This document shows, piece after piece, positions 502 through 3,685 of a stretch of 26,587 nt of DNA. This DNA comes from Solirubrobacteraceae bacterium (GTDB lineage Bacteria > Actinomycetota > Thermoleophilia > Solirubrobacterales > Solirubrobacteraceae). The stretch lies in contig JBPCNM010000194.1 of the NCBI GenBank assembly GCA_051001255.1, positions 1 through 26,587 of the forward strand, written 5' to 3'. The notes beneath the pieces are model-generated. The model did not search any database, had not been told where the DNA came from, and saw only the letters and a program-made list of their open reading frames with translations. The position numbers and the translations under genes were made by a program. Position 1 is the first letter of the stretch, and the number at the start of each line of letters is the position of its first letter.

Positions 502-529
502 TTGCGCATGCGCGTTGCACTGGTATGTT
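502..529 (+). promoter_or_regulatory. Putative housekeeping-sigma promoter for the riboswitch leader
   Basis: TTGCGC (502-507), a 16-nt spacer, then TGG-TATGTT (extended -10, TAnnnT at 524-529), about 20 nt upstream of the aptamer. Confidence 0.4.
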
Positions 530-548
530 GTCGGCGCTCAATCGACCA

Positions 549-684
549 AGGCCGAGTTCCCGTCGACAGCGACGGGAAGCGGGGGAACCAACGGGACTCC
601 GGTCCCCAGGGGCGAATCGCCGCCAGCGTGCGGCGTAGCGTAGGTCGTCGAACGCGCGAGCCCGACAGCTAACTCCGTAGGCCG
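549..684 (+). ncRNA. c-di-AMP riboswitch (ydaO/yuaA class)
   Basis: Class hallmarks appear in the expected order: GCCGAGT, a perfect 9-bp hairpin TTCCCGTCG/CGACGGGAA (557-578), GGGGGAACCA (581-590), hairpin GGGAC/GTCCC, GGGGCGAATC (609-618), hairpin GCCGC/GCGGC followed by GTAG, and the terminal CGAGCCCGACAGCTAACTCCGTAGGC (657-682). GGCC at 550-553 can close P1 with GGCC at 680-683. Confidence 0.87.
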
Positions 685-832
685 CCCAATGGAAGGATGG
701 CTTCACCGTGCCTGCGACCAATCGCGGCTTGATCTCCCAATGCTCCGGATCTCGTTCACGATCGACGGGCGGCGCCCGGTCGGTTGCCTCCCGAGGAAGC
801 GCCTGCACGAGCCCTGACAACCGGTAGGTCCG

Positions 833-1369
833 ATGAACCTGCTGAGCGGCGGCGAGTTCTTCCTCCTGCTGCACCTTGGGCTGGGCATCGGCTTCATCCA
901 CGGCTTCGCCGGGGGGATCGCGACGCTCGTCGACCGGACAACCACGCGGCTTGCGGAGACGCGGCTGAAGGCGCGGGTGCGGGCCGCCAGCACGCTGTTG
1001 ATGGCGGCGGCGCTGTGGGGCGCCGTCATTTCGGGGACGTGGCTCGTGTATCCCGGTTACCGGGCGGAGCCGCCGGAGGGCGCCGCGACGGCCGCCTATC
1101 CGAAGGCGGACCTGCTGGCCAACGAGGACCTCGCGTTCTGGCACGACTTCGGGATGGAGTGGAAGGAGCACGTCGCCTGGCTGACGCCCTTCCTCGCCAC
1201 CGCGGTCGCGTTCGTCGCGATCCGCTACGGCCGCCGAGTGTCCAGCGACAAGCTCATCCGCTCGTCGCTCATCCGCCTGTTCACCGTCGCTGCGCTGGCC
1301 TCCGTGGTGGCGGCCGGACTCGGCGCCGCGATCAACAAGGTCGCGCCCAACCTGTTCCTGGATCTCTGA
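833..1369 (+). CDS. Uncharacterised integral membrane protein (about 4 TM), 178 aa
   Basis: Clear codon bias and hydrophobic segments. Motifs YPxYRA and WHxxGMEWKEHVAW, with several His in or near predicted TM segments. Confidence 0.85.
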   Translation: MNLLSGGEFFLLLHLGLGIGFIHGFAGGIATLVDRTTTRLAETRLKARVRAASTLLMAAALWGAVISGTWLVYPGYRAEPPEGAATAAYPKADLLANEDLAFWHDFGMEWKEHVAWLTPFLATAVAFVAIRYGRRVSSDKLIRSSLIRLFTVAALASVVAAGLGAAINKVAPNLFLDL

Positions 1370-1384
1370 TCGAAGGGTATTCCC

Positions 1385-1816
1385 ATGAGCCTCATCGACG
1401 AACGGTCATCCGGCGCCCCCGAGCGGCGCCCCGGGGCGCCGCCGTCACGCCACGGTCGACCGGCGGCCGAGCTGGCCGACACGGGCGAATCGCGTAGCGC
1501 TACGGAGCCCAACGGGGGAATCGCTGCGGCGTTGCTGGCCGCCGGCATCGGCTGCGCGGCCTTCGGCGTTCTCGTCGTCCTCGCCGAAGCCAGCGCCGCG
1601 GTCAAGGACGCGCTCACCGTCTCGGAGGGCGCCGGACCGCTGTCCGGAAAGGGCCTCGGCGCGACGGTGCTGTGGGCCGTCGCCTGGGCGGTGCTTCACG
1701 CAACGCTGCGCAACCGCGAGCTCCCGTGGCGACCCGTCGCGCGTACGACGACGGCGCTGATCGCCGTGGGACTCATCGCGACCTTCCCGCCTGTCTTCCA
1801 GCTCTTTGCGCACTGA
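1385..1816 (+). CDS. Uncharacterised membrane protein (about 3 TM), 143 aa, probably co-transcribed with 833-1369
   Basis: 15-nt gap after the previous stop. Disordered N-terminus, then PNGGIAAALLAAGIG..., GPLSGK..., and C-terminal ATFPPVFQLF. Confidence 0.8.
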   Translation: MSLIDERSSGAPERRPGAPPSRHGRPAAELADTGESRSATEPNGGIAAALLAAGIGCAAFGVLVVLAEASAAVKDALTVSEGAGPLSGKGLGATVLWAVAWAVLHATLRNRELPWRPVARTTTALIAVGLIATFPPVFQLFAH

Positions 1817-2047: not shown

Positions 2048-2710
2048 ATGAACAAGCTGCTGCTCGATGCCGCCGGCCGTCGCCCGTCGCCCGTCGCCGG
2101 CGACCATGCCGGTCGCCCGCCACGCAACAAGGGCATCCGTTACCCGGCCGACCCGCTCACCATCGAGGAGATCGTCGCCGTCATGCGGACGGCGGGCGGC
2201 GGGGCACATGGTCGCCGCCTACACGGATTGATCGTCGTGCTCTGGCGCGCCGGGCTGCGCATCCACGAGGCGCTCGCGCTCGGCGAGCCCGATCTCGACC
2301 ATCGCGCGGCTCGTTGCTTGTCCGGCACGGCAAGGGCGGCCGCCGACGCGAGGTCGGCATGGACGAGCGGGCGTGAGAACAACTCCAGCCATGGCTCAGT
2401 GTCCGGGTCAGACTCCCGTCGGTCCGCTGTTTCCATCATCAACGGCCACGCGCGGCCGGCCGTGGTCGAGCGCGGCCGCCCGCGCGGGAGCTTCGCCGGA
2501 CACCACGCACGCTGGCGTGCGTCGGCGCTTCGCGCCGCACCAGCTCCGGCACGCGCACGCCGACGAGATGGCACACGAAGGCGTCCCGCTGATCGTCACC
2601 CAACGCCAGCTCGGCCACCGCAACCCGCCCATGCCCGCCGAGCGCCGATGATCCGGCATCACATCGATCTATCTCCACGGCATCGACAGCGCGGAGATCA
2701 TCGACATTCC
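2048..2710 (+). pseudogene. Decayed tyrosine recombinase (phage integrase family, catalytic domain only)
   Basis: Catalytic motifs are spread over different frames: GLRIHEAL (R), VRHGKGG (K), HQLRH (HxxR), LGH, and GITSIY (Y). There is an in-frame TGA at 2374-2376 and several indels. Confidence 0.85.
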
Positions 2711-2891
2711 CTGCCGAAGAACTCGAATGTCGCAGCGGTCGACCGCTTCGTCGTCGATGCGTACCGAAGCGCTTGGGATGCTGGCCTACACGCGCCTTGA
2801 CGCGCGTCCTGAGGTCGAGCCAGTAACCCACATACGGTGACCGCATTTCGCGCGATGCGGCAGCGTCGTTCAAGTATCGGTTTGATCCCCG

Positions 2892-3685
2892 TCAGCCCAG
2901 CGCGTCGAGGAAGGCGAGCGCCGCGCGCTCGGCGTCCGCGCGCGGCTTGAGGCCGGCGTCGGCGGCGCGCGCCCGGAGCTCTCGGTAGAGGTCCGCGGCT
3001 GTGCGGAGCGCCGCCGTGCAGCCGGCGCGCGAGTGATCGCGCACCGCCGCCGCCAGCGCATCGACGAGCTCAGGCGCGTAGCGCTCGATGCGCCGCACGC
3101 CCTGGGGACGCTGCGCGTGCTCGCGCGCAATCAGCGGTCCGAGCGCGGCCGAGCGCAGGAGCGTAAGGAGCTCCAAGCACTCGAACAGCTCACCGCGACC
3201 GATCTTGGTCGCGCCGTAGTGCACCCAGACCCAGAAGCGGTCTTCGATCCACTGTCCGTCAGGCGCGGGCCATACGGCGGTCGTGGCCGCCGTCGCGTCC
3301 CGCACGGCGCCGTCGCGCTCCCAGAGGACGTGCGCGTCCTCGACGCGGTGAGCGAGGTCTCGGAGTGCGATCACCTTGATGTCCACGTGGAGCAGCGGGG
3401 TCCGTACAGCGCGATGAGCAGCCGCGGCTCGCCGACGTGATCGCCGGTGAACGCGGCCAGCAGCGGACCGATCGCGGCGGCGAGGTCGCGCACGTCGGGC
3501 GCGGCACCGTGGTCGCCGTCGCGACAGACGACAACCAGGTCGAGGTCCGAGAACTCGTCCATTGTTCCCGTCACGGCGGAGCCGCCCGCCGTGACGCCGA
3601 CGATGCGCTCGTCGCGCGCCGCGGCCGCGAGTAGCCGGTCGAGCAGCGGGCGGGCTAGAGCCGGCAGGGCGTCGTAGGACAGCAC
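2892..3685 (-). pseudogene. Pol-beta-superfamily nucleotidyltransferase (LinB/Lnu- or Aad-like fold) with one -1 frameshift
   Basis: N-half has GGSAVTGTMDEFSDLDLVV (GS...DxD motif). C-half ...PLLHVDIK...WIEDRFWVWVHYGATKIGRGELFE... is in another frame. Adding one G to the G4 run at 3397-3400 restores LYGPPLLHVD. Confidence 0.75.

Follow-up and report, generated by a model that had tools for sequence, protein, structure and literature searches.

A c-di-AMP riboswitch upstream of an uncatalogued two-gene membrane-protein family in a Solirubrobacteraceae contig

The riboswitch and the gene pair

The window analysed in this study is the whole 26,587-nt stretch of contig JBPCNM010000194.1 (forward strand) from the Solirubrobacteraceae bacterium assembly GCA_051001255.1, which comprises 3.18 Mb in 489 contigs and is 73% complete. 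Near its left end, a riboswitch for cyclic di-AMP (c-di-AMP) precedes two genes for small membrane proteins, designated A and B. A cmscan search of the whole window with Rfam 15 gave a single match, RF00379 (c-di-AMP riboswitch, ydaO/yuaA class), at 540–700 (+), with 62.3 bits against a gathering score of 38 and an E-value of 2e-12. The match is complete, covering model positions 1–134 of 134, and the 3′ strand of helix P1 ends at 683. A sequence-only reading of the window had placed a complete aptamer of this class at 549–684, which is the core of the match. As judged by the covariance model, the element at 540–700 is a real c-di-AMP riboswitch, for which binding of c-di-AMP is predicted.

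Gene A (833–1369, +) encodes a 178-aa membrane protein with four helices according to the open reading frame (ORF) list, the alignment and an AlphaFold model. Gene B (1385–1816, +) encodes a 143-aa protein which, by the ORF list and alignment, has a variable N-terminal tail, three predicted transmembrane (TM) helices and a GPLSGK loop, and is the predicted partner of A. The two genes are on the same strand, 15 nt apart. The earlier description of two tightly spaced membrane-protein genes of 178 and 143 aa is borne out by these coordinates, by the 4-TM model of A and by three hydrophobic segments in B. That description had also recognised no motif in either protein, in agreement with Pfam and NCBIfam searches, in which A and B had no meaningful match.

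Loci with A homologues, numbered here with the prefix L, were searched for aptamers with RF00379 or with a covariance model built from seven copies. In six lineages, comprising all loci in which A shares at least 79% identity with that of the window, an orthologous aptamer is located directly 5′ of A. The identities are 99–100% for L047–L049, 92% for L035, 87% for L033 and L034, 81% for L030, L032, L050 and L114, and 79% for L113, and the riboswitch-linked A proteins are 74–92% identical to one another. At least four different flanks occur among the six lineages, L030 and L114 sharing their upstream side. The upstream gene encodes the C-terminal part of an ABC-transporter ATPase in L030, an LOR protein in L033, a DUF1989 protein in L035 and a protein of no recognisable family in the window. 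The proposition that homologous pairs never carry the riboswitch fails, because the switch is directly 5′ of A-B in all close homologues. Retention of the riboswitch upstream of homologous pairs depends on their relatedness: it was seen in all six lineages at 79–100% A identity, and an aptamer was found in front of the pair in 0 of about 90 loci in which A identity was 66% or lower.

Control by c-di-AMP is therefore regarded as a recent and narrow recruitment and not as a property of the family. Searches of the 11 other genomes belonging to the genus of the window, and of 25 other genera in its family, did not recover the pair. In these sequence comparisons the link between switch and pair is real but lineage-specific, and belongs to one narrow group of uncultured high-GC soil bacteria. 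A narrow lineage of such bacteria may thus have recruited A-B into its c-di-AMP regulon, after which the unit would have moved or persisted as a block.

A block of this kind can be delimited in the window. Positions 397–2855 share 98–99% nucleotide identity with the metagenome contigs L047–L049 by blastn, the right end being at 2853–3057 depending on the contig. The L047–L049 flanks are unrelated to those of the window on both sides, which places the block in two genomic contexts. Its approximately 2.5 kb contain the promoter-like site, the riboswitch, the leader ORF, A, B and a broken integrase gene. The last is a degenerate tyrosine recombinase of the phage-integrase family at 2048–2800 (+), split over three frames, with a Pfam Phage_integrase match (E 2.7e-9) on 2373–2648. 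Since the L047 copy is likewise broken, over two frames, the gene is probably a true pseudogene rather than an artefact of assembly. Neither a tRNA nor clear terminal repeats could be identified where the block ends. The riboswitch-A-B unit behaves as a single inherited module, which was probably mobile at one time.

The leader between the aptamer and gene A

In the window, 132 nt separate the aptamer from A. A Shine-Dalgarno-like GGAAGGA at 691–697 (+), conserved in all leaders of the clade, lies 8 nt past the P1 3′ strand and inside the 3′ tail of the Rfam model. In L033, where the aptamer abuts A, this site is just 7 nt from the ATG of A. In the window it is followed by a candidate leader ORF at 708–827 (+), which consists of GTG, 38 sense codons and TAG, with the stop codon at 825–827 located 5 nt before the ATG at 833. 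The arrangement recurs in L035, with 38 codons and an indel of 3 nt that preserves the frame. The ORF has 36 codons from GTG in L030 and L114 and 29 codons from an ATG start in L113, and in all three loci its TGA overlaps the ATG of A (ATGA). The leader peptides are basic and unrelated between lineages. Overall, the leader ORF stops at the start of A in every lineage with a gap, and the relay frame is open in three sequence-diverged lineages. When a leader ORF was defined as a frame starting 3–14 nt from the Shine-Dalgarno site and ending at most 12 nt from the ATG of A, such an ORF arose in 5–10% of dinucleotide shuffles per lineage. The joint chance for three lineages is about 5e-4 assuming independence, an optimistic value because the lineages share ancestry.

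No terminator-like hairpin or site was detected by a terminator scan of the leader. The leaders are less structured than their shuffles (z of +1.4 to +1.6), and the fold of the entire 520–850 region has a z of 0.18. The Shine-Dalgarno site together with a leader ORF ending at the start of A suggests translational control that is relayed by coupling, and the gap between aptamer and A most likely represents a leader ORF that is translated, rather than marking the switch as orphaned. The aptamer would govern initiation at the adjacent Shine-Dalgarno site (691–697) serving the leader ORF (708–827), and ribosomes ending the leader ORF would hand translation to A by termination-reinitiation, that is, by stop/start coupling. 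Translation would then pass from A to B across the 15-nt gap, and its loss may additionally expose the RNA to Rho. If the switch behaves like the characterised members of its class, expression would fall at high c-di-AMP (OFF).

The promoter is the weakest element of the arrangement as read from the sequence. The promoter-like site at 502–529 (+) consists of TTGCGC (502–507), a 16-nt spacer and TATGTT (524–529), and matches 7 of 12 consensus positions; its −10 element fits the actinobacterial TANNNT. A consensus promoter scan of 300–2100 reported none, including at 502–529. The TANNNT element is kept in L035 and L033 and is unclear in L030 and L114. The promoter-like sequence noted in the sequence-only reading is thus present, but it is weak, is not recovered by the scan and is partly conserved in relatives. 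Transcription probably starts near 535. In a metatranscriptome run (X20), short assembled contigs cover 613–738, and a contig of a 92%-identical relative spans about 755 to 1055. These contigs were given no weight, because they are assembled, DNA carry-over is possible and transcript ends are not shown.

The proteins and their predicted complex

The A family is large. A word-indexed search gave at least 1,226 homologues, counted as clusters at 90% identity, at an E-value of 1e-3 or better, and an exhaustive profile search gave at least 631 cluster representatives at 50% identity; all are unnamed. The longer forms of A from the profile search have no Pfam domain in their extra parts, and a Pfam search at E-values up to 1 over 34 A members gave scattered sub-threshold matches with no consistent family. 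By Pfam and NCBIfam, A and B do not match the known target classes of c-di-AMP riboswitches, namely KimA, KtrAB, Kdp and amino-acid transporters, and RpfA, NlpC/P60 and LysM hydrolases. In tblastn searches B adjoins A in 24 of 26 species-representative genome loci, which come from Actinomycetota, Chloroflexota, Deinococcota, Pseudomonadota, Verrucomicrobiota and Desulfobacterota; the gene order is B-A in two Pseudonocardia loci. The same adjacency is found in most of 66 metagenome loci, and taken together the roughly 100 loci, which represent six or more phyla, show it with few exceptions. No third neighbour gene is conserved, and the 48 immediate neighbours tallied with Pfam fall into heterogeneous families. 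By these sequence searches A-B is a widespread two-gene family without a Pfam or NCBIfam entry or a named homologue.

The earlier suggestion that the pair forms a complex agrees with the adjacency across phyla and with structure prediction. When both alignments were used, the A-B complex had interface scores (ipSAE) of 0.91, 0.91 and 0.90 in three runs, compared with 0.00 for the best of three controls. In calibration, 58 of 80 solved complexes and 2 of 110 mismatched pairs attained the mark set for this score. The predicted local distance difference test score (pLDDT) of the partner was 79–80, and the contacts agreed by at least 95% between runs. In the modelled interface, helices 3 and 4 and loop 69–78 of A contact all three helices of B, and the two proteins are predicted to form a 7-TM heterodimer.

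One clade (L012, L055–L057, L059, L065, L066 and L111; A identity about 48%) differs in its gene content. No B-like gene was detected there, a gene for an extracytoplasmic function (ECF) sigma factor is found 25–80 nt after A, and an ORF of about 80 aa precedes A. The A proteins of this clade may have a partner other than B.

The AlphaFold model of A is a four-helix bundle with a mean pLDDT of 88.7 and a predicted template modelling score of 0.82. The positive-inside rule would place both termini on the outer side, together with the long loop that connects helix 2 to helix 3. Among 164 full-length members, the residues conserved in at least 85% are His14, Trp62, Gly68, Thr69, Tyr73, Pro74, Tyr76, Arg77, Pro90, Leu94, Trp103, His104, Met108, Glu109, Trp110, Lys111, Glu112, His113, Trp116, Pro119, Thr123, Ala126, Arg143, Gly164 and Pro172. 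Most of them are at the outer ends of helices 1–3 and in the outer loop. Specifically, His14, Tyr73, Tyr76, Arg77, Trp103, His104, Met108, Glu109, Lys111, Glu112 and His113 form a cluster on the predicted extracytoplasmic face. B has three hydrophobic segments in its alignment and lacks any conserved residue that is charged or polar, and the family-wide conserved residues of the pair are all in A. This distribution points to the cluster in A as a putative metal, cofactor or small-ligand site and not an ion-conduction path, with B as a structural partner.

Fold comparison of A gave no specific relative. A Foldseek search of the Protein Data Bank (PDB) found nothing at an E-value of 1e-3 or better, and VIA-align across the PDB found only generic helical bundles, the best Z-scores (11–12.5) being to designed or unrelated ones. 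Among AlphaFold database (AFDB) and Atlas models, weak matches to CopD, DUF2231, DUF2214 and cytochrome bd subunit I were obtained, with template modelling scores of 0.5–0.65. The CopD, DUF2231 and DUF2214 four-helix bundles (Foldseek E-values of 0.03–0.2) share a conserved histidine in helix 1 with A, but A has no Pfam match to these families.

Regulation and function of the pair

The assembly contains three copies of RF00379. The other two are located on contigs C99 (9560–9722, −) and C291 (5233–5389, +), the latter with only 39.6 bits, just above the cut-off. The genes that follow them have PG_binding_1 matches and sub-threshold NlpC/P60 matches, a setting that is the classic actinobacterial c-di-AMP regulon of peptidoglycan hydrolases. 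A riboswitch upstream of hydrolase-type genes has been described for Streptomyces (rpfA) and for Corynebacterium (nlpC of C. glutamicum) (PMC10117811, PMC9960051). Of 9 same-genus genomes searched, 8 encode a DAC-domain cyclase, as do 5 of 5 other genomes of the same order, and from these gene contents the organism very probably makes c-di-AMP.

The neighbours of the pair in other genomes give a few leads on its function. The nearest clades without the riboswitch, sister clades with 64–66% A identity, have genes for a multicopper oxidase (L039, 6016–7137) and for a Peptidase_M75 protein that is imelysin/EfeO-like (L042, 4002–5219), each 32–45 nt after B on the same strand. These neighbours are a possible hint of periplasmic metal chemistry, and a copper or iron theme is kept as a lead. 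In one locus a DoxX gene follows the pair. Among the distant loci, the only riboswitch near the pair was found in a groundwater Actinomycetota genome (L017, 4653–4792, −; L046, 204–343, +). It is oriented opposite to the pair and controls a 198-aa protein that has the NlpC/P60 motif YDCSG and no Pfam match.

We favour, with some reserve, the explanation that a functional ydaO-class switch controls the A-B operon through the leader-ORF relay, and that A and B form a heterodimer with an outward-facing metal, cofactor or ligand site. By analogy with the characterised riboswitches, A-B would be expressed when c-di-AMP is low. A wider joint reading is possible, and we put it forward as a tentative and rather doubtful one. 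It would make A-B a new heterodimeric inner-membrane family with an outward-facing His/Glu/Met site and with a physiological role linked to the signals of turgor, K+ and cell wall that c-di-AMP reads. The same reading includes an expression platform of which no description was found, in which the ligand would control initiation at a non-conserved leader ORF with stop/start hand-over.

Several observations weigh against the favoured explanation. The roughly 90 A-B loci without a switch mean that the riboswitch says little about the core function of the family. The leader peptide is not conserved and open frames are common in DNA of 72% GC, to which the optimism of the joint chance given above has to be added. 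In thermodynamic modelling, the accessibility of the Shine-Dalgarno site did not change consistently between the free and the aptamer-enforced state. The direction of the response is assumed. No DAC-domain cyclase was found in the 73%-complete assembly of the window itself. The metal or cofactor site is deduced only from residue types and weak generic fold matches, and a relation of A to CopD (PF05425) was rejected, with no hmmscan match and a probability of 2% in hhalign against 11 CopD domains of related genomes.

Three other explanations were weighed. The riboswitch might be orphaned, controlling the leader ORF alone or acting as a stand-alone RNA while A-B is transcribed from its own start in 700–830; we consider this very unlikely. 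The 132-nt gap, the failure to model an expression platform and the start near 755 of the sole RNA-library contig reaching into A would fit such a separation, although assembled contigs cannot show where a transcript starts. The consensus scan found no promoter-like site in 700–830. Moreover, the unit of aptamer, A and B is preserved in four or more different flanks, the aptamer abuts the ATG of A in L033, and the leader ORF ends exactly at the start of A in all lineages with a gap.

The other two explanations accept the control of A-B by c-di-AMP and differ in the function of the complex; both appear unlikely, and to a similar degree. One is that A-B is a transporter for K+, another cation or an osmolyte, repressed by c-di-AMP in the manner of kimA, ktrAB and kdp. 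The riboswitch class commonly controls K+ and amino-acid transporters according to Nelson et al. (2013) as summarised in PMC10117811, A-B is an integral membrane heterodimer by the model, and a gene for a Phenol_MetA_deg outer-membrane barrel beside the pair in three proteobacterial loci hints at the passage of a solute. However, A-B has no similarity to any transporter family, and seven TM helices with almost no conserved intramembrane polar residues (none in B) are a poor fit to a channel or carrier. The conserved residues also sit at one membrane face, and the riboswitch regulon of this genome consists of cell-wall hydrolases and not of transporters. A transport, osmotic-stress or envelope complex had been suggested from the sequence at the outset, and no finding points specifically to K+ or osmolyte transport. 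The regulon would instead favour an envelope or cell-wall complex, one under joint control with NlpC/P60 hydrolases that could act in wall remodelling or envelope stress as a partner, sensor or regulator, since the other two c-di-AMP riboswitches of the genome precede PG-binding NlpC/P60-like genes. The adjoining, convergent position of the riboswitch-controlled NlpC/P60-like gene in L017/L046, the ECF sigma gene directly after A in the clade without B, and another ECF sigma gene that, together with a two-component system, neighbours A-B in contig P0019 argue in the same direction. Against this explanation, the L017 adjacency is a single case, and in a rough estimate about 0.3 such cases would arise by chance among the actinobacterial loci that were covered. 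The remaining neighbours are heterogeneous, and the family extends to diderm phyla, whose envelopes differ.

The favoured explanation, a switch acting on A-B through the leader ORF, can be set beside known systems. Like the leaders of kimA and ktrAB in B. subtilis, rpfA in Streptomyces and nlpC in C. glutamicum (PMC10117811, PMC9960051), the element is a full-length RF00379 in a sense 5′ leader. The host is likewise a high-GC soil bacterium, and its other copies of the element are upstream of NlpC/P60-type genes. Its target, in contrast, is an uncharacterised 4-TM and 3-TM pair and not a transporter or wall hydrolase. Premature termination was reported for Streptomyces rpfA (PMC10117811), whereas no terminator is evident here and a Shine-Dalgarno site with a leader ORF is found instead. 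The riboswitch is of a known kind, and novelty lies in the family that it targets and in the apparent relay through the leader ORF.

In Salmonella, the Mg2+-sensing leader RNA of mgtA contains the short ORF mgtL, whose translation modulates the RNA structure. The likeness to the present leader, a ligand-sensing RNA with a short translated ORF before a membrane-protein gene, is an analogy only; RNA class and ligand differ, and here the ORF appears to relay translation by the proximity of stop and start codons. CbtA/CbtB, a predicted cobalt transporter, was first inferred from its riboswitch context and is likewise a small two-gene membrane module with an upstream riboswitch. Its architecture is different, however, and the CbtA match was below the Pfam cut-off, appearing in one A-family member (E 0.0058) and only one other (E 0.31).

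A riboswitch with a known ligand is a rare handle that links an uncatalogued family to a physiological signal; the handle is real here but narrow, and its reach is limited because the link is confined to uncultured relatives. The predicted heterodimer and the invariant outer-face residues offer direct targets for mutagenesis, and the culturable carriers of the family (Streptomyces, Nonomuraea, Yinghuangia and Pseudonocardia) make knock-outs feasible. If true, the leader-ORF relay would explain how riboswitches of high-GC bacteria that lack intrinsic terminators can exert control some distance away from the start codon of their target. By analogy with the characterised members of the riboswitch class, the A-B complex would be wanted, in this one lineage, at low c-di-AMP alongside the peptidoglycan hydrolases.

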